From a virus: DNA of 64,000 bases. The DNA lies in IMG/VR virus record IMGVR_UViG_3300044904_000056, positions 1 through 64,000 of that record; one strand, 5' to 3'. The notes below the pieces were generated by a model. It did no database searches and was not told the DNA's origin. It worked only from the letters and a program-made list of their open reading frames with translations. This document shows positions 35,118 to 58,842 of this stretch, piece by piece. The translations under genes were made by a program, and so were the position numbers. Positions within the stretch are counted from its first letter, which is position 1. Each line of letters opens with the position of its first letter.

Positions 35118-36163
35118 CTCGCCTTACGCAATGCAGAGTCAATCTCCTCCTGATGCCTCGAATAGTATTTGGCGAGACTGCTGCGGGTCACGACATCCTT
35201 CCCGAAACGGTAAGTGGATTTGTTGCGAGTGAAAACTCCCCGGTCAACTGCGTACTCCCAAACTGCTTGAACTTTGTCTATCCCCTTCCCCCAGAGAATC
35301 GGAAACTGACAGCGCGTTTCATTTAGTCCTACCTTGTTTTTCACCACTTGCAATTCAATGAGTGCTCCGATTCTGTCCCCATCTCCGTTCTTGAGGCTTT
35401 TGATCTTCGCCGTTCGGCAGCGTACCCAGGAGTAGAATTTGAGAGCTTTTCCGCCATAGGTAGTCTCTTTGCTGCCCCAGGTCACGCCTATGTTTGTCCG
35501 GGTTTGATTGACACAGATCAGGCAGACTCCGTTTGTCCGTAGGAACTTCACCATACGCCTGAAAAACCTCGATATTTGCAGAGCTGATCTCCCCATATCG
35601 CTCTTATCCAAGCTGGCTTTTTCCTCTATCTCGCTCCTGGTAGGTGTTGACGCTACAGAATCCCAGCCAAATACGATGGGTGTCGTCTTATCCTTCTCCC
35701 GAAGCGTTTTCACTGTCTCACGGATGTAATCATAAATGTCCTCGATGGTCTCGCACTCGTCAAATATCAGGAGGCGCTTTACGTCAATGCCAACCTTCTT
35801 CATCCGCTTGTAGTTGGCAGAGTATTCGGTCGGAAAAAGTCCTGCATAATAGTCAAGATGTTGAGCTTCCGCTATTATGTTCTCCATCACCCCAGTTTTG
35901 AATGATCCTTCTGGCCCAAATATCTCAATGATCCCAGATGGGAACCCAAGGCCATAGCAAACGCAACAATCTACTGAAATGATCCCGCTTGGGACATAGA
36001 CCAGGGGCTGCGAGAAGATAGAGTTCTCCAGAGTGGTAAGAACCCCATCGCTATGTTCCTTTTCAAACTTCTTATTGATAGCCTCTACTGCTGAGAACAA
36101 AGTCTTGTCCTGTACCCCTTTGTACCCAGATGGGCCTCTGTACCTCGGAAATCTTGGTGGCAT
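35099..36163 (-). CDS. recA: RecA/UvsX recombinase
   Basis: IIEIFGPEGSFKT, WDSVAS, VNQTR, TYGGKALKFYSWVR, VVKNKV. Confidence 0.92.
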   Translation of the reverse strand: MPPRFPRYRGPSGYKGVQDKTLFSAVEAINKKFEKEHSDGVLTTLENSIFSQPLVYVPSGIISVDCCVCYGLGFPSGIIEIFGPEGSFKTGVMENIIAEAQHLDYYAGLFPTEYSANYKRMKKVGIDVKRLLIFDECETIEDIYDYIRETVKTLREKDKTTPIVFGWDSVASTPTRSEIEEKASLDKSDMGRSALQISRFFRRMVKFLRTNGVCLICVNQTRTNIGVTWGSKETTYGGKALKFYSWVRCRTAKIKSLKNGDGDRIGALIELQVVKNKVGLNETRCQFPILWGKGIDKVQAVWEYAVDRGVFTRNKSTYRFGKDVVTRSSLAKYYSRHQEEIDSALRKASCLEGE

Positions 36164-37997: not shown

Positions 37998-40664
37998 TCA
38001 TGTAAACTGGCTAGGGATTACAAATTGTCCCTTTTCGGAACCATGCTCTAGCTCCGTCATTGTTCCAAGATTAGGCCCTAAGAAACAATCAGTATCCAGC
38101 GGCACTTCGCAATACCATCCTGTCTTTTCCTCAATCCACTTCCGGTCGGTCATAAAGAGATGGTGCTGGTAAATTACGTCTTGGGCTTCCTTGTGATAGA
38201 TATCTATGTAGCCCGCATCGTGGACCGTGATAATGTATTTCGACTTCATCCTGTACTTGCGAAGCCAGTCCGCCATCCGCCATCCTGCGCACCACGTCAC
38301 ATCTGAAGCATCCCCTTGTATCGGTGCGTTGATTCCCTGCCGAACTGCTTCCGCCCTCTGGGCTTCGTTCTCACTATCAACTTCAGGAAGCCTTCTTGGC
38401 CTAAAGAAATGGGAGAAGACAATCTTGTGTTTCTTGATGTAGTTCTCACGCTCTAGACGGTAGGCTAGACAATCGTCATACTTGCCAAAATACCTATTGA
38501 TGAATTTCTCTGCCCAACGCTTTGATTTCTGAAAGTCTGCCGCAAGGGCTTCTGGCCCCCGTCCGTAAAGCACCCCAAAGGATACCATCGACTTAGAATC
38601 AGTCCGCTTCTGCTTCTGCTCCTCTTTCGGGAGAGCGTTCCACTGTTCCTCTGTAAGCTCAAATCCCGCCATCGCTCCCATCTTGTGCGGGTCCTTACCA
38701 GACAGAAACTCCTCCAACATCACATCGTCTTTTGCCCGGTCACAGAACAAGCGCATTTCGATTTGCCTGGAATCCTGTTCCATGATGAAGTACCCATCAC
38801 CATGGGAACAGAACTGAGTTCGCAACTCCATCGCCAGCTTGTTGCGCTTGGGAAAGTTTTCGTGATTCGGGTCCTCACTCGACACCCGGCCTGTTACCTG
38901 ACCGTCCACCCGGTAGGTCGTATGCGTCTTCCCATCTGTACCTCGCCATCGGGGCAGAGGGTCTATGTACTTAGATTTCGCTGAGACTAGCTCGCTGCGG
39001 TCAATGATAATCGTCAGAGGCCTACTCTTCCGCTTTTTGTTGAGGCGTTCTAGGACTTCCCGTTCAACTGATTCCTGTTTCCCTGAAGGAGTCTTCCAAA
39101 GAGGCTCATAGTCTAGGATATCAAAGACCAACTTGCGTTTCTCATCTGGGGAGTTCAGGTTGATGAGTTCACGGTTGGACTCGAACAGCTCAAAGACTTT
39201 CTTCTTAGGATTTGGGATTGGCCTCTTGTAGCTATTGACCCGCTCGATGAGTTCCTTGAGGAGTTCCTTGTCCTTCCATTTCTGAAGAGCCTTGATTTCA
39301 GACAGGTTGACTAGCTTTTCGTCGTGCTCTGCAATTCTCCTCTCATAGACCTTCTCTAGCTCCTTGTTACGCTCCTTGTCAATCCTGACCCCGTTGATCT
39401 CCTGTGTAGCGGCAGTCCAATTGTGATACATAATCGGAAACTTGAAAGGACGTTCCCAGAGATGTTGCCTCTTCAGCTTTTTCCGGAGATGGAAGAACAG
39501 CCTCCGGGTTGCGATGCAGTCCTTAATGTTGTAGTCATACAGGATATCAGCCGGGACAAGGTTCAGATTCCCACCACTCTCGGGATTTGCCTCAGGATGC
39601 TCAATGCAATACTGCTGCTTAGGCCGGTCATAGTCCATCATCCCTATGAATGCAGCCAGCTCTTTCAGGCCCTTCCCACCCCTTCGTTCGTTCAGGCAGT
39701 AGGCCATCAGCTCTGTATCAGCGTAATAGCCGTGACCTTTCCTTCCGCCTAGCCAGATGTCGTGCAGCACAGCGGTGTAGACAAAATCGTATTTGCCGTA
39801 ATGGAGCAACCACTTCAGGTCTTCGTCTTCCCAAAGCTCTCGGGTAGCCTCTAGGCATTCCTCAGGATGGACCTTGATACCGTCTATCTGAACGCGGCTA
39901 TAGACCGGCAGGACGGCTCCTACGTTGTCCCCCCAGGAGTAGCCTATGCAGCCGATTTGAGGCTTGCGAAACCGGGCGAACGGTGAGAGTGTACTGCCTT
40001 CAATATCGGTTGAAGGATACTCGGCTTTCTTGACGATGTCTACAACTTCCTGGAGAGTCCGCTTGTCCTTGACTACAATCTGTTCAAATTTCTCCCTGCT
40101 GATAGCGTGTTTCGGCGGATAGGCAATCCGCTTCGCTGTCTTCAGCACCTCTAGGAACTGCTTGTAGTTAGCCTCTGTTTTGTTGCGCAGGTACCACGCT
40201 GGGTGGAAGGATATGACATACTGCCAAGGCCCTCCGTTCACGACGTTCCCGTGAAGCTTTAGGACTCCAGTTTTGTTGAGAACACTGCGGAGAGGAGAGG
40301 CTCCAAGGAGGATGACTACTTTCGGACGGAGCGAATGTATTTCACGAAGCAGATGGGGCCGACAGTGATTAATAGCGTAGGCTGGTAGTTTGTTCCCTGG
40401 CGGACGGCACCTAGCCGCATTGGTGAAGCGGCATTTCTTCGGGTCAATCCCAACTTCCTCGATAGCTTCCCGGAGAACAAGGCCTGCTTCTCCACACCAA
40501 GGGTAGCCATTCTCATCCTCGTGCTCACCAGGCGCTTCCCCGACAAACAGGAATACCGGCTCCTCACTGCCCTCCCCATTCATCTGTGGGGATTTGCAGC
40601 CCTTATAGAGCTGGCAAGGCTTGCAAAATCTATCAGGTTGTCGGAGAACGTTGAGACTAAGCAT
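37998..40664 (-). CDS. polA: Family A DNA polymerase with N-terminal uracil-DNA glycosylase domain (SPO1-like architecture)
   Basis: GEAPG/CRPP/FHPA (family 4 UDG); DIE...YNIKD (3'-5' exo); TGRVSS, DSRQIEMR, K...FGVLYG, NAPIQG, TVHD. Confidence 0.92.
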   Translation of the reverse strand: MLSLNVLRQPDRFCKPCQLYKGCKSPQMNGEGSEEPVFLFVGEAPGEHEDENGYPWCGEAGLVLREAIEEVGIDPKKCRFTNAARCRPPGNKLPAYAINHCRPHLLREIHSLRPKVVILLGASPLRSVLNKTGVLKLHGNVVNGGPWQYVISFHPAWYLRNKTEANYKQFLEVLKTAKRIAYPPKHAISREKFEQIVVKDKRTLQEVVDIVKKAEYPSTDIEGSTLSPFARFRKPQIGCIGYSWGDNVGAVLPVYSRVQIDGIKVHPEECLEATRELWEDEDLKWLLHYGKYDFVYTAVLHDIWLGGRKGHGYYADTELMAYCLNERRGGKGLKELAAFIGMMDYDRPKQQYCIEHPEANPESGGNLNLVPADILYDYNIKDCIATRRLFFHLRKKLKRQHLWERPFKFPIMYHNWTAATQEINGVRIDKERNKELEKVYERRIAEHDEKLVNLSEIKALQKWKDKELLKELIERVNSYKRPIPNPKKKVFELFESNRELINLNSPDEKRKLVFDILDYEPLWKTPSGKQESVEREVLERLNKKRKSRPLTIIIDRSELVSAKSKYIDPLPRWRGTDGKTHTTYRVDGQVTGRVSSEDPNHENFPKRNKLAMELRTQFCSHGDGYFIMEQDSRQIEMRLFCDRAKDDVMLEEFLSGKDPHKMGAMAGFELTEEQWNALPKEEQKQKRTDSKSMVSFGVLYGRGPEALAADFQKSKRWAEKFINRYFGKYDDCLAYRLERENYIKKHKIVFSHFFRPRRLPEVDSENEAQRAEAVRQGINAPIQGDASDVTWCAGWRMADWLRKYRMKSKYIITVHDAGYIDIYHKEAQDVIYQHHLFMTDRKWIEEKTGWYCEVPLDTDCFLGPNLGTMTELEHGSEKGQFVIPSQFT

Positions 40665-40957
40665 TATTTTGACTTAGACTTTGTTCGCTTAACTTCCTGC
40701 AAGCCTAGATGGAACCCGATGCAGGTCAACAGCTTGAAAAGTTCAACTTGAGCCTTCGCAGCCTCTTTCTCGTTCTCAGAACCTGCTTCTGTTATTAGAA
40801 AGTCCGTAGCCATCATACCAATCTTCGGGTTGAGGCCGACTTTCCTGAAAACAGAATCCCAGTCCTTTGGCCACCGCTTGTCCTTCCTTGCTGCCTTCAG
40901 CAGGACATCGCAGCGATTCCAGAATTGTTTCTGCTTGTACTCTTCAAAACGGCTCAT
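40664..40957 (-). CDS. Hypothetical protein
   Basis: Coupled ORF. Confidence 0.55.
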   Translation of the reverse strand: MSRFEEYKQKQFWNRCDVLLKAARKDKRWPKDWDSVFRKVGLNPKIGMMATDFLITEAGSENEKEAAKAQVELFKLLTCIGFHLGLQEVKRTKSKSK

Positions 40958-41343
40958 TGCGCTTTCTCCTTCAACTCCTTGATACGGTCCATCGCGTCTT
41001 CTAGCTCAACTACGGTTGTATAGCAGAGCATAAGACAGACAACCTCCTTTTCCGCAGCAGCCAAACCATTCTGGACACTAAATATCTCTAGCTGCTGTGC
41101 CCAGCGATATTTGGGAAGAGGGAGAACTCCATCCCGGATAGACTCGATAAGCTTCTGAAGATAGTGCATTGCTTTATCGAGGTCCTGTAGTCCGTTTTTC
41201 TTACGCCAACGCGTCACATATTTCGTGACCTGCCCCTCGAAATATCCTAGATGGTTATGGGCTGCTAAGTCCCAGTGCTGAAATTTCGCCTGGTAGTGCT
41301 CTCCGCCCACCTGGTAGTCATTCGCCTTCTTGTCAGATTCCAA
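40954..41343 (-). CDS. DUF3310 (SaV / T7 gp1.7-like nucleotide kinase) protein
   Basis: QVGGEHY...YFEGQVTKYVTRWRKKNGLQDLDKAMHYL; likely TTG start at 41343 after AGGAGG. Confidence 0.8.
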   Translation of the reverse strand: MESDKKANDYQVGGEHYQAKFQHWDLAAHNHLGYFEGQVTKYVTRWRKKNGLQDLDKAMHYLQKLIESIRDGVLPLPKYRWAQQLEIFSVQNGLAAAEKEVVCLMLCYTTVVELEDAMDRIKELKEKAQ

Positions 41344-41707
41344 TTTGTGCCTCCTTGGGAATGTCCTCCAAACGCGCCAGACCAACATCCCAGTGGTCCG
41401 CGTGATTCTCTTTAGCCAGACGTTCTGCTTCATTCCGAGCAGGCGTATGACTGGTAGCCTTGATAAATTTCGTATCCCAATCCCTGCGACCGTTGAAGTA
41501 GAGCTTGACTTCATACCAGTCTTCCTGAACAACAATCGGCAGGATAATCCGGTGCTCTGCCGGCTTCGTCATCACCTTCGGAAAGAAGTACCTCTTGCGA
41601 AACTCGTGAGGCTTAGGATGGAATCGCGTTGTCCGCTTCTCTGGGGCTTTCCTGGCCCGGACCTTCTTTGTCTTCCGTGTTGGTCCTGCCTTTTTCTTTT
41701 GCGTCAT
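41333..41707 (-). CDS. Hypothetical basic protein
   Basis: ORF overlapping the end of the thymidylate synthase homolog. Confidence 0.5.
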   Translation of the reverse strand: MTQKKKAGPTRKTKKVRARKAPEKRTTRFHPKPHEFRKRYFFPKVMTKPAEHRIILPIVVQEDWYEVKLYFNGRRDWDTKFIKATSHTPARNEAERLAKENHADHWDVGLARLEDIPKEAQIGI

Positions 41708-42800
41708 CGAGTAGCCTCACACAGGTGGAGTAGACTTCTTTCGATATTCCATACGTGCACTGCTCGTAATAGTTCAAAGCCAATTCCATAAACGGGGAGG
41801 GAAGGTGCAGAATTTCACTAGCGACCCACTCCGCCCTATACTGCCAACCTGGCTCTTTCACCCAGCGGAAAATAGTAAGCATTTGGGGAATGGTTTTTAT
41901 CCAGTACCCATCTGGAGGGGGAGGCCATGTCGGATTTGGAAGCTCTCTTGGTTTGTCCGTCTTGAAAGCCCTAATCTTCTCTACTTTGAGGAGGACGTGT
42001 TGAAACTCTTCGTCAGTAACTGTAGAGAATCCTGGTACGCATTCGGCCTTAACACTTGCTTGATTCATCACCTCTGATTCATCAAAGGCTCTTTCGAGGA
42101 TATTCCCTAGAGTCGGCTTGTAGAGTTCTTCATAATAGTGGAGATTTTGAATAATGTACGTCAGCTTCCCTATCTTCGCCCCCAGACAACCCGCTATATA
42201 GGCATGAATATGGGAGAACTGAACCGCGTTGTACGGCGCTCCCCAAATGAGGTCGCAACTCCGCTGCACTACAGTCTGGTCTAGAATCCCGTTTCTCAGC
42301 CGTAGATATATGACATTGTTGCACGGGTAGTCATTTGACTTCAGAAGATTGTCCCGCTCCGGGTCCCAAAGGCTGATAACTGCTTGTCTTGATAGAGGCT
42401 CCCGCTTTAGCTTGTCGATGGCAATGCTAATTTGGTCTACAGTTAGATATCCTCCAATTGCTGAAGGCCAGCGTCTCATCCGCAGCCCGTAGGCCCCATT
42501 GAAATCCTGCTGATTACCATCCGCAAACTTCCTCATGTTCTTGTTAAAGTAACATATCCACTCGACATTCCCGCTGCCTGAGAGAATCCAGATTACTTCA
42601 GCAAGGGCGAAGAATGGATTGAAGTTGCGTCCAGGAATCACCATCCAGCAATATCCTGGCAGCTCATAGTTCAAACAGACAGGTTCTTCTAGCTCTAAGC
42701 AAGGACCATGGCGGGTGGGAATCTCCTTCCCATGATTTGCTATTTCGCGGACCAGAGCGAAGTAGAAGTCGCCAAGACCACGGCCTGAATAAGTTTTCAC
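41613..42800 (-). CDS. Thymidylate synthase homolog, probable dUMP hydroxymethylase
   Basis: GAYGLR, SRQAVISLWDP, DYPC, QRSCDLIWGAPYN (Asn indicates a uracil substrate), NLHYY; beside 5-hmdU kinase genes. Confidence 0.85.
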   Translation of the reverse strand: MKTYSGRGLGDFYFALVREIANHGKEIPTRHGPCLELEEPVCLNYELPGYCWMVIPGRNFNPFFALAEVIWILSGSGNVEWICYFNKNMRKFADGNQQDFNGAYGLRMRRWPSAIGGYLTVDQISIAIDKLKREPLSRQAVISLWDPERDNLLKSNDYPCNNVIYLRLRNGILDQTVVQRSCDLIWGAPYNAVQFSHIHAYIAGCLGAKIGKLTYIIQNLHYYEELYKPTLGNILERAFDESEVMNQASVKAECVPGFSTVTDEEFQHVLLKVEKIRAFKTDKPRELPNPTWPPPPDGYWIKTIPQMLTIFRWVKEPGWQYRAEWVASEILHLPSPFMELALNYYEQCTYGISKEVYSTCVRLLDDAKEKGRTNTEDKEGPGQESPREADNAIPS

Positions 42801-42816
42801 AATCGTTCCTCCTCAC

Positions 42817-43686
42817 CTAGATAGAACGCTCCCCTCTAGGAAAACGTAAGTTGCCTTGGAACCCGTTGTAGAGAGAGCGAGGCCTGCCTTCTCCCAGACG
42901 TACCCGCTCATACTTGTCCCACTCACAAAGTGCATTCTGCAAATCCTGCGCATGTATGTCCGGCATTCCTGCTTGAAAAATTTTCGGGCTGATTTTGTCG
43001 TAGAGTTCGTCTAGGCATTCCTTCCAATCCGCTTCCTTCCACTTAGCCCTCTTATCCCGCCCTATTACACGATTCAACCCTCGTTTGCTCCCAGGGCCAG
43101 AGATAGCCCAAGTTGACCAATCCTTTGCGTGCCGAAGCGTAGCATACTTCACATCAGCAATGACCTGCCCTGTCATAAAGCTTCCCATATCTTTCTGGTC
43201 GTGCAGCCTGTCGTAGAATTCCGCAAGCGTATCGCCATCTCTCGGGCGGATTTCTTTTCTTGCTCCCCACATCGGTGTCAGGACTTGCTTGGCTAGGTAT
43301 CGGGCTTTCGATTGATGATCTGGACCTGCGTGAATCATATATGCTCCGGTGAAGACTTTCTCGCCGTCTTTCTTTCGCTGCTCCAATACTCTGATGAACT
43401 CGTCTGGGTGCCAAGGAACAGGATAACCTAGCTCATCTAGGGTCTCCGGCCAATTGACAAAACGTGAAACCGTCATAGCGAACCAGAGGTCCTTATCTTC
43501 CGCGTGAGGCTCCCGCCAATGCTCCCGTACCCAAATCGTGACCGTGTCTAATTCCCGGAACACGTTGCAGAACCGATAGCGCTGAAGTATTGGGTCCCGT
43601 GTCCATGGTCGAGGCTTGCCAGCTTGCTTCCGCTTGTAGATTGCGTGGCGTTCAAGGATGAAGCGAAGGAGAGGATTGATGTTCAT
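42817..43686 (-). CDS. 5-hmdU DNA kinase helical domain (aGPT-Pplase1 family)
   Basis: ERHAIY...PWTRDPILQRYRFCNVFRELD, FTGAY, GPGSKRGL, QNALCEWDKY. Confidence 0.85.
   Translation of the reverse strand: MNINPLLRFILERHAIYKRKQAGKPRPWTRDPILQRYRFCNVFRELDTVTIWVREHWREPHAEDKDLWFAMTVSRFVNWPETLDELGYPVPWHPDEFIRVLEQRKKDGEKVFTGAYMIHAGPDHQSKARYLAKQVLTPMWGARKEIRPRDGDTLAEFYDRLHDQKDMGSFMTGQVIADVKYATLRHAKDWSTWAISGPGSKRGLNRVIGRDKRAKWKEADWKECLDELYDKISPKIFQAGMPDIHAQDLQNALCEWDKYERVRLGEGRPRSLYNGFQGNLRFPRGERSI
42821..42829 (-). promoter_or_regulatory. GCGTTCTAT upstream motif copy 4
   Basis: GCGTTCTATCTAGGTGAGGAGGAACGATTGTG. Confidence 0.7.
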
Positions 43687-44039
43687 CAGTTGCCTCTCCT
43701 TTGATTTTGATACAGACGTAGCCGTTCAGCCATATTCATCAGCTCGTTCGCCAGCTCTTCATCGCGGTAGGTGTAGTAACACTGAGTGTTGGACTTCTCT
43801 GCCATAGCTTCAAGATTGCTGATGATTTCGTCCAGGTCAACTCGGGGGCCACGGTGCTTCTTGCCGGCTTTCTTCTTATCTCGGCAGGATTTGCAGCGTT
43901 TTGGCATTTGGAATTCGGGATTTGTTGCCTGAAGACTTTTGTAGAAGCTTATCTCGCTCTCGTACATCCCCCAGTCCTCGTGGCAGTCTACGCATTGCCC
44001 CATCGAAACAAATGCTCCTCGATCTTTATCATCCCCCAT
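43686..44039 (-). CDS. Zinc-ribbon protein
   Basis: CVDC...E..FY...PKRCKSCR. Confidence 0.65.
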   Translation of the reverse strand: MGDDKDRGAFVSMGQCVDCHEDWGMYESEISFYKSLQATNPEFQMPKRCKSCRDKKKAGKKHRGPRVDLDEIISNLEAMAEKSNTQCYYTYRDEELANELMNMAERLRLYQNQRRGN

Positions 44040-44346
44040 TTTCTCTTCCTTTCCGCTTTCTCCACTCTACCCAACGTCTCTTCGTAGCTTTACCAATTTT
44101 TAGAAGAGCCTGCTTAGTATGCTTGTATCCTTTGCTATTTTGATTCCCAAATCCGAAATGTTTGCCCGCAGCATTTTTATTCCCTAATTTGGAGAGGCTC
44201 ATCTTTTTACGGCTCATAGGAGAAAGTTTTCGCCCTAAACAGTATTGATTTCCTGTATGAAGTTTGATTAGTCTGCGGCGGTGTTCTGCAGACAATTTCT
44301 TTCCCTTCCTGTTATGATTCCCCGCCCCAATCTTATTACCCATCAA
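44029..44346 (-). CDS. NUMOD3-repeat protein without a nuclease domain (homing endonuclease remnant)
   Basis: GKKLSAEHRR, GRKLSPMSRKKMS, GYKHTKQALLKI. Confidence 0.6.
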   Translation of the reverse strand: MMGNKIGAGNHNRKGKKLSAEHRRRLIKLHTGNQYCLGRKLSPMSRKKMSLSKLGNKNAAGKHFGFGNQNSKGYKHTKQALLKIGKATKRRWVEWRKRKGRENGG

Positions 44347-44399
44347 TCTTATTACCCATCATCCTTCTTCTCATCTTCTTTCGAGTAGTCGCAGACATT

Positions 44400-45023
44400 T
44401 TAATACCCAAGGAACCATCCCCACAACCAAGCTAGAATAGTTTGTAATCCATCCTGATAAGGGATAACTCTGACATCTGCCCCTACTTCTCTGAGTCTCT
44501 TCTCACTACCTAATACGGCCTTGTATTTTGGATAGAGGGATTTGTCCGGGTCAACTGGCCGAGGGTCCTTCCGCTGAATCCTGCGCTTTACCATCCGCTG
44601 AAGGCACTTCTCTAAGGGGGTATCCATAAAGCCAAATATCCAATGCGTATGCGGTAGGCTTCTTGCCAGGTCAATCCAACGCTGGGTCAGGGTAGCAGCC
44701 AGCGCTCCCTCGAAAACAACATTCCCCCGCCTGGAAAGGTCTGTGATTGCCTTGGAAGCGTAATCGGCACGGGTGCTGCCCCTGTAATAGCTTTCGTCAA
44801 TCGCGTCATAGCCGCCCGTTGTTATCCGGTAAGGCCCAAGCAGGGCTGTCTTCGTAGGCCCTGTATCGAGGACGTAGGCGAGCACCTTTCCATTCCCAGG
44901 GTTAATCAGAGGCGTATTGGAAAAGCTCTCTAGAAGGGATTTTGCTAGGGTTGTCTTGCCACTGGCATTCGTGCCCCTGATGTTGATGACGATATGCTTC
45001 AGCCGAGGAAATCGTTCCGTCAT
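44400..45023 (-). CDS. P-loop kinase, probable 5-hmdU DNA kinase partner
   Basis: INIRGTNASGKTT, LGPY...GGYDA, VVFEG, DTPLEKCLQR..RR. Confidence 0.75.
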   Translation of the reverse strand: MTERFPRLKHIVINIRGTNASGKTTLAKSLLESFSNTPLINPGNGKVLAYVLDTGPTKTALLGPYRITTGGYDAIDESYYRGSTRADYASKAITDLSRRGNVVFEGALAATLTQRWIDLARSLPHTHWIFGFMDTPLEKCLQRMVKRRIQRKDPRPVDPDKSLYPKYKAVLGSEKRLREVGADVRVIPYQDGLQTILAWLWGWFLGY

Positions 45024-45463
45024 TTCCCTTTCTCCAGCTTCGACAGATTCAAAACACCCGACTCGATAACCCGCATTGCCTTCATATAGTCGTCACCCTT
45101 GAGAAAGGGCAGGTCCGGTATGCGGATAACGGGAGGCTCCGCATACGCACCAAGAGGCGAGAACTTCCGCCGATGAGCTGGAAACTTTTTCAACAGCTGC
45201 TTGTAATGTACTGGGCTCATATAGATGATGCGGTCAGCCCATTCGACCATCTTCTGAGTCACAGGCTTTGACCTTTCGTCCTCCTCTAGATAGTACGCCT
45301 GGTTGAGGCTATAGAGAGCCTCCCGGACTTTCTTCGCAATGGTTCCCTGGTAGGGGCCTTTTTGCAGCCCTGCCGATTCAACGTTCATCCCGAGGTATCG
45401 CCCGATAGCCGCTGCGACCTGAGATCGGGAACGGTTGTTGGTGCAGATAAAGAGGATACGCAC
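45020..45463 (-). CDS. Low-molecular-weight phosphatase (LMW-PTP/ArsC fold)
   Basis: ILFICTNNRSRSQ (CX5R), SAG, WADRIIYM, IPD. Confidence 0.85.
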   Translation of the reverse strand: MRILFICTNNRSRSQVAAAIGRYLGMNVESAGLQKGPYQGTIAKKVREALYSLNQAYYLEEDERSKPVTQKMVEWADRIIYMSPVHYKQLLKKFPAHRRKFSPLGAYAEPPVIRIPDLPFLKGDDYMKAMRVIESGVLNLSKLEKGK

Positions 45464-45610
45464 TGTGCTTTCGACTCCCTTCTAGGCCCGACTGGTTTTA
45501 GGCCAGCCTATTGTTGGTAGCGGACCCAACTAGCCAGTGGCAGGGTGCTAGCAGAGTTCGTTTACGTGGGGATATAGCTAAACTGGTGTAAAGGCTAGTT
45601 TTGAGCCCTG

Positions 45611-46222
45611 CTAGGGGCCTATCCGGGGGAAGCGTAGGGGGCCAGTCCTCCTGGCCCTGACTATTAGCTCAACAGTAGCCTTCAGCTTCTCCGCTGGGTG
45701 AAAGTAGAAGAACTTAGCTTGGGCCGAGAAGATAGGTATATGCCGCCACTTCCTAGCCGGAGGCTTCGCATAGCTCACGACCTCCATCCCCGCTAGCATC
45801 TCGTTCACACGTTCCCGGTGTTTTTGGACAAGGGCGTAGGGCTGTTCTAGGTAGAACCAGCAGCCCGGATATTGCAGCCACTGTCGGATATTCCAATGGT
45901 CCTGGGTATGCTCCGTCTGCTGAAGGGGAGCCACCCCTAGAGGCAGAATCACCGTAGAGTCCGGAGGGGGCCAAGTGTGGACTGGCTTGAGCATCTCTTT
46001 CCAATCGCAATCTCCTCCAATATAGTTGTATCCTTGCCAGTAAGCACCTACAGCATCGGCGTAAGTCTCCGCATCCCGCAGGGAGTTCTTCTTCACAGGG
46101 ACCATAGTCAGAATGGTAACCTGCTTGCCTTCCTGAATCCACTGCTCGATATGAGCCCCTAGCGAAAGGAAGGCATCATCACTGTGAGGCTCTACGATAA
46201 CCAGGCGGTCATTTATGGGCAC
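45611..46222 (-). CDS. PIG-L/LmbE-family N-deacetylase
   Basis: VIVEPHSDDAFLSLG, HTQDH, YLEQPY; likely GTG start at 46222. Confidence 0.75.
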   Translation of the reverse strand: MPINDRLVIVEPHSDDAFLSLGAHIEQWIQEGKQVTILTMVPVKKNSLRDAETYADAVGAYWQGYNYIGGDCDWKEMLKPVHTWPPPDSTVILPLGVAPLQQTEHTQDHWNIRQWLQYPGCWFYLEQPYALVQKHRERVNEMLAGMEVVSYAKPPARKWRHIPIFSAQAKFFYFHPAEKLKATVELIVRARRTGPLRFPRIGP

Positions 46223-46814
46223 GTTTCGGCCTCCGGAAGACGCTGAGATGCCGCCCATACCAGTTGGAAGTAATTCTTTCGTCAGCTAATATCGCTTCGC
46301 ACAACTCCTTGGTGACCTTCTTTTCAAAGGTGAATCCGGCAAGCACAAATAGTTGCCGCCAATAGCCTTTAGGCTTGCAGTTCACGTGGTACCGGCCCCA
46401 TTCAGAAGAGTCGATGGACAGGAGCACCCATTTTGAGGAGAGCCGTTTCACCGTATCCACTAAGACTTTCTCAGAGGACTCCGGGATGTGCTCGAATACA
46501 TCCCACGAGGTTACCAGGTCAAATTTTTTGTCCAAATGGAAGGACTTTGATAGGTCGTGGGCTATGTATTTCGCTCCTTCCGCGAATCTGCTGTTGAACT
46601 CAGAACCATCCACCCCATAAGCCCTTACTCCTAGCTCTGACAGCCGATTCACAAACGACATCGTACCACAACCCAGGTCAATGCAACGCTTGGGGTGAAA
46701 TCTGTTGAAGATGAGCTCTGCTAGATATTTCGAGGACACGTGGGGTCCTTTTGTGGACCTGGTGCGATTTTTGAACCACTTCAGTGGATAGAGTTCACTT
46801 AGCTTTTCTTCCAT
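46209..46814 (-). CDS. Class I SAM-dependent methyltransferase
   Basis: IDLGCG, GVDGS, FDLVTSWDVFEHI, HVNCKPKGYW. Confidence 0.85.
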   Translation of the reverse strand: MEEKLSELYPLKWFKNRTRSTKGPHVSSKYLAELIFNRFHPKRCIDLGCGTMSFVNRLSELGVRAYGVDGSEFNSRFAEGAKYIAHDLSKSFHLDKKFDLVTSWDVFEHIPESSEKVLVDTVKRLSSKWVLLSIDSSEWGRYHVNCKPKGYWRQLFVLAGFTFEKKVTKELCEAILADERITSNWYGRHLSVFRRPKRAHK

Positions 46815-47308
46815 AGTCGTGGGAACCTCATCGGGAAATTAGGTCTTGCAAATTCTCCGAAAAATTCTTTGGCAGCAGTATCATAAGCCTTCGCTGCGGC
46901 TATCGGATTGTCGAAGGAACCTAGATGAATAACTTTCCAATATACACAAATCTGCGCATACCATTTCCTAGCACCTTTGTGCCAAGAGACACCTTTGAAT
47001 CCTGATTTGTTATTTGAATGCTTTCCTTGGTTAGCCAGATTCTGCGAGTTAGAAGCATCTCTCAAATTATCTTTTTGACAATCTAGCCCATTTCCATTCT
47101 TATGGTCTATCCCTTTGCGCCCTAATATAAAATTGTGTAGAAGAAAATTAGGAACTCCCATTTGTCCGTGAGCTGCGTACGACTTACCCTTAGAGCCAGA
47201 TGTATAGTGCCATATGCCCTCAGCTGTTACACGTTCATAATCTTCGTCATCAACAAGTGCATAGGCTCTTATCTTTCCTTTTCGATTGCGAAGCGGAATT
47301 TTCTTCAT
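46799..47308 (-). CDS. HNH-AP2 homing endonuclease
   Basis: ALVDDED, IDHKNGNGLDCQKDNLR, SGFKGVSW...AAKAYD...GEFARPNF. Confidence 0.9.
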   Translation of the reverse strand: MKKIPLRNRKGKIRAYALVDDEDYERVTAEGIWHYTSGSKGKSYAAHGQMGVPNFLLHNFILGRKGIDHKNGNGLDCQKDNLRDASNSQNLANQGKHSNNKSGFKGVSWHKGARKWYAQICVYWKVIHLGSFDNPIAAAKAYDTAAKEFFGEFARPNFPMRFPRLWKKS

Positions 47309-48426
47309 CGTCTAAACTCGTCAAAAACTTCATCATATAGTTTGTAGGCTGAATGATTGTCGTTTACATATTCCCTCGCTTCCTTTCTAGGATACCCTCT
47401 CACATCATATTTCATAATCGCTTCAGGATACTTGGCCAGGTCAGAGATAGGCAGTACCAAATTATCTGGGATGGCACTTCGGAGAAGGTTTTTGTGCACT
47501 ACAGGGACGCAGCCATAATATAGAGCCTCAACAATTGTGTTGTTGTAGGAACCTCTCCGGTAGGCTTTATATTTTGCCCTATGCCCTTGAAAGTCAGCCA
47601 TGAATCCCGCTCTGGAAAGGATTTTTGCCCGTCTCTCTACTGAGACCCAACCATAGTAGGTTGCTAAGCCCTTCCCTGAGTATTGTGGGGCAAAAAAATC
47701 CTTACCAACGACCTTCTTCCAGCCATTTTCTTTTCTCATGTTATAGTATTCAATGCCGGAATTGTAGAGCTTTACTTCGTAACCTTTGTCGAGGAGTCGA
47801 GGTACCCCATCAAAGAAGGGTTTGATTCCTTTCACATTCTTCCATTGAGGCATCCATACAACGCGATTCTCAATGCGTTCCTTTTCGGAAGGCTTTCCGA
47901 TAGGAATAAAAGGAATATAAACGGTCTGTACCGGATAGCCTGCTTTGACGAGAGGCTCTCCATAAGCAGGCTGAGTCACGAGAGTCTTCTCGCATAGCGG
48001 CAAAACTTGTTCCCCAAACTCCTTGTATGTATCCCAATAAGCATCCGAGATATAGCCGACAATCGGTATATCCAGTTTATTCAGCCTCTTTAACAAGGCC
48101 ATAAAGACAGGACTGCCCCCATAAGCTTTTGTCGGATGCGGACAGAGGAAGCTCAACATCACTACATCGTAGGATGTTAGAAAGGCTAAAGTCTCTCGAT
48201 AGTTTTCCCTATGGTGTGGAGCGTAGCCATCAATAGTGATGTAGGAATCCCCACCACGGATTAATTTTCTTTCAGGCAACAAGAGGGGATGTTTTGTTTT
48301 CTGGTTGGCGCTAACGAGGACGTGAAAGGTGTCACCTTTCTGGTCTGCTACCTTCCGATAGGTTCTCAGGCGAGTGTTGATGCCCCCTACGGAAGAGGTA
48401 GGCCAATGCAGGACTGCAATTTTCAC
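47305..48426 (-). CDS. GT-B fold glycosyltransferase
   Basis: GTG start KIAVLHW...VGGINT, WKNVKG, NTIVEALYYGCVPV. Confidence 0.65.
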   Translation of the reverse strand: MKIAVLHWPTSSVGGINTRLRTYRKVADQKGDTFHVLVSANQKTKHPLLLPERKLIRGGDSYITIDGYAPHHRENYRETLAFLTSYDVVMLSFLCPHPTKAYGGSPVFMALLKRLNKLDIPIVGYISDAYWDTYKEFGEQVLPLCEKTLVTQPAYGEPLVKAGYPVQTVYIPFIPIGKPSEKERIENRVVWMPQWKNVKGIKPFFDGVPRLLDKGYEVKLYNSGIEYYNMRKENGWKKVVGKDFFAPQYSGKGLATYYGWVSVERRAKILSRAGFMADFQGHRAKYKAYRRGSYNNTIVEALYYGCVPVVHKNLLRSAIPDNLVLPISDLAKYPEAIMKYDVRGYPRKEAREYVNDNHSAYKLYDEVFDEFRR

Positions 48427-49043
48427 GATGCTTTCCTGAAGAGGAGATAGATGCTCCTCTTGTTTGCTGATTGAGCTACTAGCCGATAGCCCAGCCCTAG
48501 GAAGCAAGTCTCCATCTCTAGAGCCGGCAGGCGTCTCGAATCGGTCAGGACTACCCAAGCGGCTTTGTCAAAGACGGCTTCTGTGACAGTTCTGTATTGC
48601 CTCTTGGCTTTACTGAGAGTCCAATCGGGGAAGTCTGCCACTACAAGGTCTGGATGCTGAAAGAGACTATCTATCACTACCGATTGAGCCCCACCAAGAG
48701 GCTCTATGATAGAGGTAGACCAGCTATGGTGCCGCCCTGCTTCCAGGATGTACGCATAGCAGCGCCTCTCATTTGAGTAGACTTCGTGCTTGTTGGGATT
48801 GAATAGCAGCTGAAGGATTTGAGCGTTGACTCCCACCCCACCAAACAGTTCAACGATGTTCTTTGGTTGCGGAGCAATTTGGCTGACGAGCTCAAAGAAT
48901 CGCCTAGCTTCAGCCTCGGTCTCCCCAGGTTCGTAACGGAGCCGCCAGAATATGCCCCGCTTCGATGGCAGAGTGTTCTTCGCAACTCGGGGGAGTTTAG
49001 AGGGGAGCATGATGCGTGCTCCGGCCACAAGGATTGATTGCAT
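48423..49043 (-). CDS. Rossmann methyltransferase-like protein
   Basis: IVELFGGVG (motif I) and DLVVADFP (degenerate motif IV). Confidence 0.55.
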   Translation of the reverse strand: MQSILVAGARIMLPSKLPRVAKNTLPSKRGIFWRLRYEPGETEAEARRFFELVSQIAPQPKNIVELFGGVGVNAQILQLLFNPNKHEVYSNERRCYAYILEAGRHHSWSTSIIEPLGGAQSVVIDSLFQHPDLVVADFPDWTLSKAKRQYRTVTEAVFDKAAWVVLTDSRRLPALEMETCFLGLGYRLVAQSANKRSIYLLFRKAS

Positions 49044-49125: not shown

Positions 49126-50304
49126 CTACGCTGCTGCCTTGCAAGCCTTCCCGAAGATTTTGAGCTTGGCCCCGAGATGAGACACGTCACCCGTGAACAG
49201 AAACTTCCCGGCAATCTTCGCCTCTTGCCAGTCCGACTTCTTGAGCCCCAGCTTCTCCAGCTTGGTCTTCGGATAGAGATAGACGCGAAAGCCTTCGTCC
49301 TTGTCCGGGCGGATGAATCGTGCCCAAGGCCCACCAGGATACTTGACATAAAGCTCCCCGCTGCTCTTGGTCTCAACCTCCGCACCCAGCGCCTCTGCCT
49401 TGCTAGACACTAGGATGTCCTTCACCGCACTGGAGAGCTTACCACTCTTGGAAGACTTCTGCTTCTTTTCCTTGTGATGGTGATGCTTGTGTTCCTTTTT
49501 GGACACTTCCTTGTCCTCCTCTTTCTCGTGCTTCTTTTCTTCCCTGGGATGGTGATGCTTATGACCCTTCTCCTTCTTTCTCTTGTCTCCCTCCTCTTCC
49601 CTATTAGCTTTCAGAACTGCGATACAATTCTTGGACTCAACGCAACGCTGGCACTCTGGCACATCCGGGTCGGGGTATTTCCCGAAGCAATCTTCAATTC
49701 CGGAGGGAATCGGTATGGACGGTGCCCGGGGTTTATACGTTGCCGGGTCAATCTGTACGAGGGGGGAGCCTTTCGACTCCCCCCTCTCGCTGCTGTCGTC
49801 CGAGGCATCCTCAGAGCTATCATCCTTCTTTTCTGAAGAATCGTCCTTCTCTTTCCCGTGGTGCTTCTTGCTACCCTTCCTGCCCTTCGGAGGCTCTGGC
49901 TCCTCAGAGCTGTCGTCCTTCTTGTCGGAGGCATCAGAGGCGTCACTAGCATCGCTCTTGTCCGATGCGTCGCTAGCATCCGAGGCATCACTGGCATCTG
50001 AAGCATCAGAGGCGTCAGAAGCGTCACTGGCGTCAGAAGCTTCAGAGGAGCTATCGTCCTTCTTGTCGGATGCGTCGGAAGCATCCGATGCGTCGCTAGC
50101 GTCCGAAGAATCTGGAGCTTCAGAACTGTCGTCTGGCTCCTTCTTCTTCGTTGAGGACTTCTTGGGAGACTTCTTTGAGGACTTTGGAGTTTCTTCCTCA
50201 GAGCTGTCGTCAGACTTGTCCGGCTCCTCTTCCGAGGAATCGTCAGCAGCCTTCCCTGGTTTTGCCTTGTGCTTTTTCTTCTTGTCTACTTTCTTTTCGG
50301 CCAT
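49126..50304 (-). CDS. Largely disordered protein with (DAS)n repeats, Cys4 module and His/Lys tracts
   Basis: SDASDASDAS repeats, DDSSEE units, CFGK...ECQRC...C. Confidence 0.75.
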   Translation of the reverse strand: MAEKKVDKKKKHKAKPGKAADDSSEEEPDKSDDSSEEETPKSSKKSPKKSSTKKKEPDDSSEAPDSSDASDASDASDASDKKDDSSSEASDASDASDASDASDASDASDASDASDKSDASDASDASDKKDDSSEEPEPPKGRKGSKKHHGKEKDDSSEKKDDSSEDASDDSSERGESKGSPLVQIDPATYKPRAPSIPIPSGIEDCFGKYPDPDVPECQRCVESKNCIAVLKANREEEGDKRKKEKGHKHHHPREEKKHEKEEDKEVSKKEHKHHHHKEKKQKSSKSGKLSSAVKDILVSSKAEALGAEVETKSSGELYVKYPGGPWARFIRPDKDEGFRVYLYPKTKLEKLGLKKSDWQEAKIAGKFLFTGDVSHLGAKLKIFGKACKAAA

Positions 50305-53839: not shown

Positions 53840-54232
53840 TCACTTCTGAATCTTCCGTTGAACTTCCCTCAGACGGGCCTTCGTCCAGTTCCGAGCAGCC
53901 GGATGGAGCATGTATATTGGTTTGCGTAGTGGTACATAGCCACATTCCTTGAAAGTTTTCTGTGCTACCCTACCACACACTAGTATAATGTCTGGGTCAA
54001 GCCTAATCAGATTTTCCGCAAGCCAATCCGGATCGGGTTTGCCGTGATGTTTGGCCTTAGTGACTAATTCCCGACAGACATTAGTCAACAACAGCCGTTC
54101 TTTATTCTGTTCGCCCACCAGCTTGTAGAGCCTACGGCCAGAAGCGTTCAGGGGGTTGATCTTGAAGTAGCGAGGAGCACGGCCAGTTCGATAGCCCCAC
54201 ATCGTTTCGAGGACTGCTACGATTGGCCCCAT
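53840..54232 (-). CDS. Small uracil-DNA glycosylase-fold protein
   Basis: SGRRL, LTN, PDIILVCGRVA, MLHPAAR. Confidence 0.6.
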   Translation of the reverse strand: MGPIVAVLETMWGYRTGRAPRYFKINPLNASGRRLYKLVGEQNKERLLLTNVCRELVTKAKHHGKPDPDWLAENLIRLDPDIILVCGRVAQKTFKECGYVPLRKPIYMLHPAARNWTKARLREVQRKIQK

Positions 54233-55616: not shown

Positions 55617-55876
55617 TCTCTCTTCTCCTTGCCCAGAGACCCTAAAGGGTACTCGGGCGTTTCTTAACCTGAGCACTGCCTATGTCAATCACCTTCCTAC
55701 TACTCTGGCAGATCGGACAACGATTCCAATGGTCATACCACTGCAAAGTCGCGGCGATAAACCCGCCTATGGAGTTGTCCAGACGGTTTACCCTTTTCAC
55801 TAGCCTGTTCTCAACTCGACATCGGCGGCTTTGCACCATGAGACCACCTCCTCCAGGTACTCGGGCTGTTGAATTG

Positions 55877-58128: not shown

Positions 58129-58842
58129 TTATGCAGAATTTCTGTTGGCGTTCCAACAAAAAATAAACCTGTCAAAGTGAGGGTTGAATTTACCCCCCGC
58201 TGCCCCCCGGTCAAATTCTGGTGGGTAAAAAACGTTGTTAAAGCATCTTTTTAGGTATTCAAGCCTACGCATTACATTCTTCACTCCTGCTTTCTTCTCT
58301 CTGGAAAAATGGTATTCCATCACGAGTTTGTTACAACATGGAATCAATTCGTCATCCAACAACCCAAACTCGCTCCCTTCAACATCCATCTTCACCCCAT
58401 CGAATATTCTCCCTGCAAAGAAATTTGCGTGTAAATTCGGAAGCCTCCCAGAAGGGTGTTCAGGCAAATTCCCTTTCACAATTGTTGCCCTGCTGAAATC
58501 TGTTTCTCTCCTCCCTTTGTAAAATTGTAGGGAGGATTTATGGAGATTCGTTATAGCAAATCTACGACAGCAAAATTCAGGAATATTCAAACGGAGGAGT
58601 CGAAAGCATTTTGGGTCAGGTTCATAGCATTCAGCCTTTGCTCCAAGAGAACGACAATATAATGCAAACGCTCCGATGTTTGCACCCAAATCTAACCATA
58701 ATTCACCCTCCTCAACATCAAAGCCAAGTCCCACTCTCCGGTAGCACCTCTTCACTAGACACTCATTTAGAACACTCTCATCACTTGTCCCTGGACGAAA
58801 ATACGCCTCCTCTAAACCAAATTTTCTCTTCTCAATTTTCAT
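58129..58842 (-). CDS. FkbM-family methyltransferase
   Basis: RPGTSD, WLDLGANIGAF, YEPDP, KMDVEGSE, MEYH. Confidence 0.85.
   Translation of the reverse strand: MKIEKRKFGLEEAYFRPGTSDESVLNECLVKRCYRRVGLGFDVEEGELWLDLGANIGAFALYCRSLGAKAECYEPDPKCFRLLRLNIPEFCCRRFAITNLHKSSLQFYKGRRETDFSRATIVKGNLPEHPSGRLPNLHANFFAGRIFDGVKMDVEGSEFGLLDDELIPCCNKLVMEYHFSREKKAGVKNVMRRLEYLKRCFNNVFYPPEFDRGAAGGKFNPHFDRFIFCWNANRNSA

Follow-up and report, generated by a model that had tools for sequence, protein, structure and literature searches.

A predicted amino-sugar route for thymidine hypermodification in an uncultured peat phage

Which base is made by a phage that carries thymidine-hypermodification genes beside a glycosyltransferase (GT) and a sugar deacetylase? 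The question is raised by a window of 64,000 nucleotides, the whole stretch of DNA analysed here, from the record of an uncultured peat phage (IMGVR_UViG_3300044904_000056). The record is 104,040 bp in length and about 72% complete by CheckV. All nine gene types listed in the initial annotation are present at positions 40954-49043, all on the minus strand and in the listed order when read down from 49043. Gene identities, folds, active-site residues, synteny, and co-occurrence were computed for the locus, and from these we infer each chemical step. The reading that we hold at slightly better than even is a mosaic thymidine-hypermodification locus. In it, 5-hydroxymethyldeoxyuridine (5-hmdU) in DNA would be glycosylated directly and the sugar then de-N-acetylated to an amino sugar, with methylation in the present phage.

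The thymidylate-synthase (TS) homolog (41613..42800, minus strand) is 395 aa in length and matches PF00303 with an E value of 1.7e-28. In E. coli numbering, it retains C146, R166, S167, D169, and N177 and carries L143D and H147N, a residue pattern shared by the M6-like enzyme and nine relatives. The functional meaning of these residues is described in PMC13326640. The L143D signature, the catalytic C146, and the uracil-specifying N177, the Asn that had been claimed initially, predict a dUMP hydroxymethylase; D169 indicates that the enzyme is not a 5hoC synthase. In the first step, it would convert dUMP to 5-hydroxymethyl-dUMP, and the phosphorylated product would be built into phage DNA instead of T by the UDG-fused PolA polymerase (37998..40664, minus strand; Pfam UDG, DNA_pol_A_exo1, and DNA_pol_A). 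This type of polymerase has been linked to phages with T-linked sugars (PMC13697223). The DUF3310 protein (40954..41535, minus strand; PF11753, phrog_5839) adjoins PolA, likewise in PAC5 and phage Simon, and is a syntenic component of the M6-type backbone.

The GT (47305..48426, minus strand) is 373 aa in length. Its AF2 model (pLDDT 95.3) has the GT-B fold, in agreement with the original call, and its top PDB match is T4 DNA alpha-glucosyltransferase (AGT; Foldseek, E 9e-14). VIA-align also ranks T4 AGT best, with Z 27.0-27.5 over 340-342 residues, followed by BshA at Z 25.4; GT4 enzymes acting on small molecules, such as BshA and MshA, trail by only about 2 Z units. The matched AGT structures include complexes with HMU-containing DNA, and the named viral structural neighbours include annotated DNA alpha-GTs and two SP-15 GTs. 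The window GT has no match in Pfam, PHROG, or NCBIfam, the AGT family of Pfam included, and its resemblance to AGT is thus confined to structure. At least 128 homologs were identified, some of which match PF13439. None was found by tblastn in 50,697 GenBank phage records, and a pattern-based scan of 185,579 cellular species genomes found the family to be essentially missing. The GT is predicted to glycosylate 5-hmdU in DNA. As a second step, this AGT-like enzyme would put a hexose directly on the 5-CH2OH of 5-hmdU in DNA, and the donor would most likely be an N-acetylhexosamine from a host UDP-sugar.

The deacetylase (45611..46258, minus strand) is a 215-aa metal-dependent de-N-acetylase of the LmbE/PIG-L type. 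It scores 20.2 bits against Pfam PIG-L, under the 28.2-bit cut-off, and the PIG-L call made earlier was confirmed by family profile and fold. The family comprises 133 representative clusters with invariant H25, D27, D28, and H121, which form the HxDD and HPxH motifs; the window enzyme thus retains the metal-binding residues, a His ligand among them, and the base residue typical of LmbE. The window protein and its closest relative have HTQDH (HxxxH), versus HPxH in 90% of the family. The family profile matches the GlcNAc deacetylases Dbv21/Orf2* (E 2e-10), BshB, and MshB, and the top Foldseek matches of the AF2 model (pLDDT 86.5) are exclusively LmbE deacetylases. No homolog was found by tblastn in deposited GenBank phage genomes. 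In the third step, this enzyme would strip the N-acetyl group and expose a primary amine, as MshB does after MshA and BshB after BshA. This would yield a 5-(aminosugar-O-methyl)uracil with a free amine, as in all characterised 5-hmdU-derived hypermodifications.

Conservation was scored in 45 non-redundant related GT loci and 12 related virus records, four of which are 95-100% complete. In all 25 loci whose flank reaches 1.5 kb or more, the deacetylase gene directly follows the GT gene in the same orientation, and by this adjacency it is an obligate partner of the GT. Seventeen loci have 7 kb of flank or more, and both aGPT-Pplase1 and the TS homolog are present in 11 of them. A dUMP-hydroxymethylase-type TS homolog occurs in most of the 12 records. 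One relative has a Tet/JBP dioxygenase in its place, and two related phages (G004 and G005) have the GT, deacetylase, and aGPT-Pplase1 with neither enzyme detectable.

The usual targets of GT4 enzymes and LmbE deacetylases are glycolipids, cell-wall polymers, and metabolites, and phage GTs such as the TarM/TarP types modify host surfaces. The GT, deacetylase, and methyltransferases might act on host envelope glycans, teichoic acids, or phage proteins and merely lie beside nucleotide-metabolism genes. We regard this as very improbable, since the linkage to aGPT-Pplase1 and the TS homolog is kept across very divergent phages, with GT identities of 32-57%. Additional DNA-type GTs adjoin the GT in relatives, namely a second GT4 and the TET-associated GT (TAGT; PF20691), the latter in four of them. 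The window cluster also sits wholly inside the replication gene block, and a lineage-specific terminal RFPR motif is common to the deacetylase, kinase, aGPT-Pplase1, RecA, and DNA endonucleases. The evidence supports placing the GT and deacetylase with thymine-modification genes rather than surface-glycan genes.

The absence of an amino-acid:DNA transferase, reported initially from the window, extends to the whole record. A profile search of all 104,040 bp found no ADDT (aGPT-Pplase2, PF18724), and the control search on an M6-like phage was positive. ADDT was likewise not found in the 12 related records, four of them at least 95% complete, or in the 45 related loci, and neither a PLP enzyme nor a radical-SAM enzyme was found in the window cluster. 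An ADDT could lie in unseen sequence, since the record is only partly complete and an identical copy of its 206-aa methyltransferase-fold protein occurs on a 207,626-bp contig. The phage would then make a canonical amino-acid-derived hypermodification, and the sugar genes would be additional or unrelated. The scattered modification genes of ViI (gp67, gp160, gp226, gp243, and gp247) and the intact kinase, phosphatase, and aGPT-Pplase1 of the window are consistent with this. We nevertheless think it quite unlikely: in M6-like phages and Simon, ADDT is encoded upstream of the kinase at a distance of a few kb, the window has the GT/deacetylase/methyltransferase cassette at that position, and the four most complete relatives carry the GT module without ADDT. 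Under the direct-glycosylation reading, the sugar cassette would have replaced the ADDT/PLP/radical-SAM cassette of an M6-type backbone.

The P-loop 5-hmdU DNA kinase (5-HMUDK) ortholog (44400..45023, minus strand) is 207 aa in length. It is barely above the PF18748 cut-off (27.3 versus 27 bits), is 30% identical to M6-type 5-HMUDK over its full length (E 4e-15), and has the equivalent syntenic position. A 4-nt overlap couples it to the low-molecular-weight phosphatase (45020..45463, minus strand; 147 aa; PF01451, E 3.8e-11), whose translation has an intact CX5R(S) P-loop (C7-x5-R13-S14) and a later Asp. No 5-HMUDK was found in the 12 related records, and neither enzyme was found in the 45 related GT loci. 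In the ADDT-bearing phage Simon, a phosphatase homolog lies immediately upstream of 5-HMUDK; the pair therefore belongs to the M6-type backbone, from which it would be inherited, and conservation sets it apart from the sugar pathway. The amino-sugar proposal of the initial annotation accordingly stands in part. Its GT and deacetylase go with thymine-modification genes (25 of 25 adjacencies; aGPT-Pplase1 in 11 of 12 records), as the neighbourhood comparison it called for indicates, and the GT is nearest to a DNA hydroxymethyl-pyrimidine glucosyltransferase. Its phosphate route, with the phosphatase editing intermediates, finds no support in this distribution. Direct glycosylation gives no role to the retained, apparently intact kinase and phosphatase. 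They might phosphorylate 5-hmdU transiently and then reverse this, or serve a side pathway.

The aGPT-Pplase1 (42817..43686, minus strand; 289 aa; Pfam HMUDK_hel, PF18723, E 3.9e-47) is 40% identical to the product of M6 ORF055. Its presence in 11 of the 12 related records, including all four complete ones, marks it as a conserved member of the GT module. It has 26 invariant columns, including a C254-E255 pair within LCE[FW]DKY. The pair is one argument for a rival reading in which the kinase is used differently. The GT and deacetylase could make a free amino-sugar conjugate off DNA, as BshA/BshB and MshA/MshB do, and aGPT-Pplase1 could act as a non-canonical group transferase (an ADDT paralog) that joins the amine or hydroxyl of this conjugate to kinase-activated 5-phosphomethyl-dU. 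GT4 plus LmbE is the classic pair of GlcN-malate and GlcN-inositol synthesis, BshA and MshA match the GT structure strongly, and the window keeps an intact 5-HMUDK and phosphatase. ADDT activity is abolished by mutating a conserved Cys or a nearby Glu, and a weak profile alignment pairs the aGPT-Pplase1 Cys with the LCKW segment of ADDT, which contains a Cys, although with an hhalign probability of just 2.4%. We consider this route unlikely, since the related GT loci and records have no kinase and thus no activated leaving group, the M6 aGPT-Pplase1 (gp55) is dispensable in vitro, and the best structural match of the GT is AGT, not BshA.

Two S-adenosylmethionine (SAM) methyltransferases flank the GT in the cluster. 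The first (48423..49043, minus strand; 206 aa) has no match in Pfam, PHROG, or NCBIfam. The earlier "MTase-like" label is borne out by ESM Atlas, which places it with methyltransferase clusters (feature score 0.93) and gives a class I fold with TM 0.66-0.71 to PrmA/MTS/TrmA-type methyltransferases. The search for homologs yielded only three (51-77% identity). The gene is translationally coupled to the GT, with its TGA stop overlapping the GTG start codon of the latter. The second (46209..46814, minus strand; 201 aa; Methyltransf_23, PF13489, E 3.7e-11) has a counterpart in P0002, a 589-aa methyltransferase-GT fusion of a close relative: the N-terminal domain of P0002 shares 64% identity with it, and the GT part shares 66% identity with the window GT. 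This fusion ties the methyltransferase to the GT and makes it a candidate sugar-tailoring enzyme. Both are missing from all 45 more distant GT loci and, on this distribution, are restricted to the close lineage of the window. In that lineage alone, a fourth step would tailor the sugar or its amine further. A possible additional enzyme of sugar tailoring is the FkbM-family methyltransferase encoded 9 kb upstream (58129..58842, minus strand; PF05050, TIGR01444).

Three homing-endonuclease-type ORFs within the cluster were missing from the initial list. An HNH-AP2 homing endonuclease (46799..47308, minus strand; Pfam AP2 and HNH_3) sits between the GT and the 201-aa methyltransferase, ends in the RFPR motif, and is outside the modification pathway. 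A NUMOD3 ORF (44029..44346, minus strand) and a treble-clef Zn-ribbon ORF (43686..44039, minus strand; Pfam zf_Tbcl) lie between the kinase and aGPT-Pplase1 and are probably the remnant of a homing endonuclease.

No description of a GT-LmbE-aGPT-Pplase1 module or of an amino-sugar product was found in the literature. As predicted from its genes, the locus is, as far as that literature goes, a previously undescribed form of DNA base glycosylation. The GT/deacetylase pair recurs in dozens of uncultured phages and in no sequenced cultured phage.

In M6, ViI, PhiW-14, and SP10, thymidine hypermodification is performed by 5-HMUDK, ADDT, and tailoring enzymes (PMC8989533, PMC5889632). The window has its dUMP hydroxymethylase, 5-HMUDK, aGPT-Pplase1, DUF3310, and polymerase ordered as in M6-like phages and Simon, and its end product is likewise predicted to have a free amine. 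It differs in having a GT, LmbE deacetylase, and methyltransferases in place of ADDT, PLP, and radical-SAM enzymes, and the conserved GT module of its relatives wholly lacks the kinase.

SP-15, YerA41, and Carin-5 resemble the system predicted here in carrying sugars on T and in encoding a TS homolog and a PolA fused to UDG; YerA41 has aGPT-Pplase1 with no detectable 5-HMUDK, and a GlcNAc deacetylase is predicted within the GT genes of Carin-5 (PMC13697223, PMC12686479). The window GT has the SP-15 GTs among its structural neighbours. In these phages, however, the sugars are attached via a pentyl-type linker with phosphate, the deacetylase is annotated as a polysaccharide deacetylase rather than LmbE, and tblastn against deposited phage genomes found no homolog of either the GT or the deacetylase of the window.

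Among TET/5mYOX-associated pathways, viral clusters also hypermodify hydroxymethyl-pyrimidines with sugars, and a survey saw, in metagenomic contigs, GT-B-type enzymes encoded close to ThyS homologs (PMC8256090; bioRxiv 10.1101/2023.12.21.572611). TAGT-family GTs adjoin the GT in the four relatives noted above. The glycosylation characterised in those studies, unlike that predicted here, is of 5hmC.

The core chemistry predicted here, the O-glycosylation of 5-hydroxymethyluracil within DNA, is that of base J in kinetoplastids (JBP plus JGT), and one relative combines the GT/deacetylase pair with a Tet/JBP-family oxygenase. In the window, 5-hmU would be made before replication by a TS homolog, rather than by the JBP thymidine hydroxylase. 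The GT is of the AGT-like GT-B type and JGT is of another, and the predicted sugar is an amino sugar rather than glucose.

The mycothiol (MshA/MshB) and bacillithiol (BshA/BshB) enzymes have equal folds, and in both a retaining GT-B transfers GlcNAc before an LmbE zinc enzyme exposes the amine. Their acceptors are small molecules of cellular thiol metabolism, whereas the window pair is specific to viruses and associated with genes of thymidine modification.

In T4, as predicted here, a TS-family hydroxymethylase makes the precursor of 5-hydroxymethylcytosine before replication and a GT-B enzyme then glycosylates the 5-CH2OH in DNA. No solved structure is closer to the window GT than that of T4 AGT, to which it has no detectable sequence similarity. 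T4 is not known to have an LmbE deacetylase or aGPT-Pplase1. The window differs from T4 in its predicted pyrimidine, uracil (N177) rather than cytosine, and in the obligatory LmbE deacetylase and the aGPT-Pplase1 that accompany its GT.

The window is the first 64 kb of an IMG/VR virus record that is linear, 104,040 bp in length, and 72% complete (CheckV). It was found again in several peat metagenomes (sequencing runs stored as contigs). An identical copy of the 206-aa protein encoded at 48423-49043 lies on a record from a 207,626-bp contig, so the 104-kb record may represent about half of the full phage genome. No GenBank phage matched the region by megablast, a promoter and terminator scan of the region stayed at background level, and the sole match in a PADLOC scan was a generic methyltransferase (MTase).

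Almost every gene lies on the minus strand, and the cluster is therefore read as transcribed from 49043 towards 40954. In this direction it encodes the 206-aa class I MTase-like protein, a 373-aa glycosyltransferase (GT, 47305-48426), an HNH-AP2 homing endonuclease (46799-47308), a Methyltransf_23 SAM MTase (46209-46814), a PIG-L-like protein referred to here as the deacetylase (45611-46258), an LMW phosphatase (45020-45463), a P-loop kinase (44400-45023), a NUMOD3 ORF with a Zn-ribbon ORF (43686-44346), aGPT-Pplase1 (42817-43686, HMUDK_hel in Pfam), a thymidylate synthase (TS) homolog (41613-42800), and DUF3310 (40954-41535), all on the minus strand. On the same strand, a 97-aa ORF lies between DUF3310 and the gene for a UDG-fused family-A DNA polymerase (37998-40664). 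The endonuclease, Methyltransf_23, NUMOD3, Zn-ribbon, DUF3310, and polymerase assignments are from Pfam. The inventory of 40954-49043 agrees with the nine genes listed in the initial annotation and adds three homing-endonuclease-type ORFs. The ORF caller places the GT start at a TTG at 48558, and the sequence offers a GTG at 48426. The GTG was taken as the start because it overlaps the upstream TGA (GTGA) and is preceded by AGGAAA, giving the length of 373 aa.

Homing endonucleases break into the sugar cassette repeatedly. The HNH-AP2 gene separates the GT from the MTase in the window, and a GIY-YIG SegE-type gene (11643-12419) separates the GT from the deacetylase in the related locus L003. 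Directly upstream of the cluster is a 392-aa protein (49126-50304) in which long SDA/DDSS acidic repeats alternate with Lys/His-rich blocks. Further upstream, in the replication block, lie another UDG-superfamily gene, this one free-standing (53840-54232), and a gene for an FkbM-family methyltransferase (58129-58842). Elsewhere in the window, a 1261-aa ORF (18821-22606) has a weak, sub-cut-off match to phage portal proteins and is split by an intein that carries an HNH domain.

The GT has no match in Pfam (at E 0.01 or better), PHROG, or NCBIfam, and none among PDB sequences by phmmer at E 10 or better. It therefore matches no sequence of the T4 DNA alpha-glucosyltransferase (AGT) family in Pfam or the PDB. 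At least 128 homologs were found, a few of which match Glyco_transf_4. An AF2 model built from 27 sequences (pLDDT 95) has a GT-B fold with AGT as its nearest structure. Foldseek ranks AGT first among solved structures (E 9e-14), HMU-containing DNA complexes included, and VIA-align does so too, with Z of 27.0-27.5 and rmsd of 3.7-4.0 Å over 340-342 of the 373 residues. Identity across this structural alignment is 15-16%. VIA-align ranks BshA (Z 25.4) below AGT, followed by HepE, TarM, PimA, and MshA. Named neighbors among viral models include DNA alpha-glycosyltransferases and two GTs of SP-15, a phage with glycosylated thymidines. From its gene context, the GT is predicted to transfer a sugar onto a hydroxymethyl-pyrimidine in DNA.

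The deacetylase scores 20.2 bits against Pfam PIG-L (PF02585, cut-off 28.2), with only its N-terminal motif matching. An exhaustive HMMER search recovered 133 representative clusters of its family, mostly 170-200 aa in length. H25, D27, D28, and H121 are invariant in a 40-sequence alignment and correspond to the LmbE HxDD and HPxH motifs. In LmbE and PIG-L proteins, (A/P)HxDD supplies the metal-ligand His and Asp and the catalytic Asp, and the last His of HPxH is a metal ligand. The N-terminal motif of the window protein reads PHSDD and aligns with its counterpart in Dbv21. The second motif keeps its first His in 90% of the family; in the window protein and the relative closest to it the motif reads HTQDH, with this His shifted by one residue, which qualifies the assignment. 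The family profile matches Dbv21 and Orf2* (E 2e-10), BshB, MshB, and chitobiose deacetylases, and a fold search with the AF2 model (pLDDT 86.5) returns these LmbE enzymes too. All of them de-N-acetylate GlcNAc moieties.

A scan of the GT alignment against IMG/VR and JGI metagenomes yielded 54 loci (45 after removal of redundancy), which were searched with custom HMMs. In all 25 loci that have at least 1.5 kb of sequence 3’ of the GT, the deacetylase gene lies downstream of it on the same strand. It usually abuts or overlaps the GT, with the short locus L032 a possible exception. Where the flank extends to at least 7 kb (17 loci), aGPT-Pplase1 and the TS homolog come next in 11. Among 12 whole related records, aGPT-Pplase1 is present in 11, including all four with a completeness of 95-100%. 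The phosphatase, either MTase, and the 206-aa protein were found in none of the 45 loci. Additional DNA-type GTs stand beside the GT in some relatives: four loci have a TET-associated GT (PF20691) and two have a second GT4. A close relative, P0002, has the MTase fused to the GT. Relatives also encode YfbR- or NT5C-type 5’-deoxynucleotidases, which the window’s record lacks. No homolog of the GT or deacetylase was found in any deposited phage genome, and a pattern-based scan of cellular genomes with the GT gave a single marginal partial match.

The TS homolog was aligned with E. coli ThyA (from the K-12 record) and is described in E. coli numbering. It retains C146, R21, R166, S167, D169, and N177, so that the catalytic Cys and the Arg/Ser residues that bind the dUMP phosphate are all kept, and it carries the substitutions L143D and H147N. 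Exactly the same pattern occurs in the M6-like enzyme and nine relatives, Asn177 being present in nine of nine. Asn at position 177 specifies uracil rather than cytosine, an acidic residue at position 143 accompanies hydroxymethylation, and D169 rules out a 5-hydroxycytosine (5hoC) synthase (PMC13326640). By this signature the TS homolog is a dUMP hydroxymethylase, predicted to produce 5-hmdUMP. For the window phage, the combination of Asn177 and Asp169 in the TS homolog led to the rejection of a cytosine acceptor. One relative without a TS homolog (G001, loci L003, L060, and L061) encodes a Tet/JBP dioxygenase. Two others (G004 and G005, loci L006 and L007), one of them with a complete genome of 170 kb, encode the GT, deacetylase, and aGPT-Pplase1 with neither a TS homolog nor a Tet/JBP enzyme detectable. 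Judged by gene content, the conserved unit is the GT, the LmbE deacetylase, aGPT-Pplase1, and a predicted source of 5-hydroxymethyl-pyrimidine.

aGPT-Pplase1 matches PF18723 with 161 bits. In alignments of the family 26 columns are invariant, among them a Cys-Glu pair in the C-terminal LCE[FW]DKY motif, and on these grounds the protein looks like an enzyme. The profile had no match among PDB sequences. Compared by hhalign with one sequence of the amino acid:DNA transferase (ADDT, formerly aGPT-Pplase2), it aligned weakly (probability 2.4%), the Cys-Glu pair falling on a Cys-containing LCKW segment. ADDT is the group transferase and requires both its conserved Cys and a neighboring Glu to be active; M6 gp55, an aGPT-Pplase1, was dispensable in vitro (PMC8989533). 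In two related loci other proteins follow aGPT-Pplase1: an APS-kinase-like P-loop protein in L014 (2031-2414) and a weak ParB_N-like protein in L009 (14810-15886). These may be non-orthologous partners of aGPT-Pplase1.

The initial annotation recognized no ADDT in the window, and this extends to the whole 104-kb record, itself 72% complete and, to judge from the 207,626-bp contig, perhaps about half of the genome, in which PF18724 has no match even at E 10 or better. The same search gave 160 bits on an M6-like phage as a positive control. ADDT is likewise absent from all 12 related records.

The kinase scores 27.3 bits against PF18748 (cut-off 27), shares 30% identity over its full length with the M6-type 5-hmdU DNA kinase (5-HMUDK), and occupies the syntenic position. 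The LMW phosphatase scores 43.8 bits against PF01451 (cut-off 23.2) and has an intact CX5R(S/T) P-loop (CTNNRSRS, residues 7-14); an IMG/VR scan with it found no relative. The 206-aa protein is PrmA/MTS-like by ESM Atlas only, has just three homologs, and gave nothing against PDB sequences by phmmer. The initial annotation suggested that 5-hmdU or its phosphate may receive the sugar, with the phosphatase editing or recycling phosphorylated intermediates. A P-loop 5-HMUDK is found in none of the 12 related records, and with the kinase absent from the module everywhere outside the window, the phosphate route is unlikely as the main path. The phosphatase is linked to the kinase rather than to the sugar genes, and the two also form a pair in phage Simon.

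Gene order places the window in a mosaic with ADDT-bearing phages. The M6-like order is ADDT, PLP enzyme, radical-SAM enzyme, kinase, aGPT-Pplase1, TS, 5’-nucleotidase, DUF3310, and PolA. The order in GenBank phage Simon is ADDT followed by phosphatase, kinase, aGPT-Pplase1, TS, HD nucleotidase, and DUF3310. The window has the backbone phosphatase, kinase, aGPT-Pplase1, TS, DUF3310, and PolA, with the GT/MTase/deacetylase cassette where the ADDT cassette stands elsewhere.

A short RFPR tag recurs in the proteins of the record. It occurs 16 times in the 130 minus-strand proteins of the whole record versus 0.28 expected by shuffling (maximum of 4 in 2000 shuffles), and nine of the 16 occurrences are within eight residues of a terminus. 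The tag is carried by the kinase at its N-terminus and by aGPT-Pplase1 and the deacetylase at their C-termini; other carriers include RecA, an FtsK-like ATPase, and several homing endonucleases, and the genes in the window include 42817-43686, 44400-45023, 45611-46258, 46799-47308, 35099-36163, and 54234-55676. The tag is absent from homologs in related phages and looks like a lineage-specific docking motif.

To our knowledge, every solved thymidine hypermodification pathway proceeds through phosphorylation of 5-hmdU and an amino-acid:DNA transferase. A second, simpler route is suggested by this locus and by at least 45 related ones. In the most economical mechanism, 5-hmdU in DNA would be O-glycosylated directly by the GT and then de-N-acetylated, which would transfer the logic of MshA/MshB to DNA. 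The predicted product would bear an amine, like the known 5-hmdU-derived bases. A fuller reading, to which we give slightly less than an even chance, is that the GT-LmbE pair represents a widespread hypermodification confined to uncultured phages. Thymine would be replaced by an O-linked amino-sugar derivative of 5-hydroxymethyluracil (“amino base J”), bypassing kinase and ADDT, with the sugar methylated in the peat phage and aGPT-Pplase1 acting independently of the kinase. If true, a kinase-independent role of aGPT-Pplase1 in 5-hmdU DNA modification would change the present view of the family.

On the basis of strong comparative evidence, the locus is proposed to encode a new form of DNA base glycosylation. 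If this is confirmed, the base would be one not yet known from natural DNA, and two DNA-acting enzymes would be gained, a glycosyltransferase for 5-hmU DNA and the first LmbE enzyme with DNA as its substrate, both of use for labeling 5-hmU. It would also give a handle on the unexplained aGPT-Pplase1 family and be one more case in which phages exchange whole cassettes of their anti-restriction chemistry. In a literature search, neither a GT-LmbE-aGPT-Pplase1 module nor an amino-sugar thymidine was found described. A survey has reported GT-B enzymes near ThyS homologs in metagenomes (bioRxiv 10.1101/2023.12.21.572611, PMC8256090).

Compared with known systems, the window shares 5-HMUDK and the aGPT-Pplase1 paralog with the M6/ViI-type system and differs in that no ADDT was found in its record. 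aGPT-Pplase1 alongside GTs without a kinase recalls YerA41. Thymine-linked sugars are known chemically in phages SP-15, YerA41, and Carin-5, whose pathways are unsolved (PMC13697223, PMC12686479); the genes of these phages differ from those of the window.
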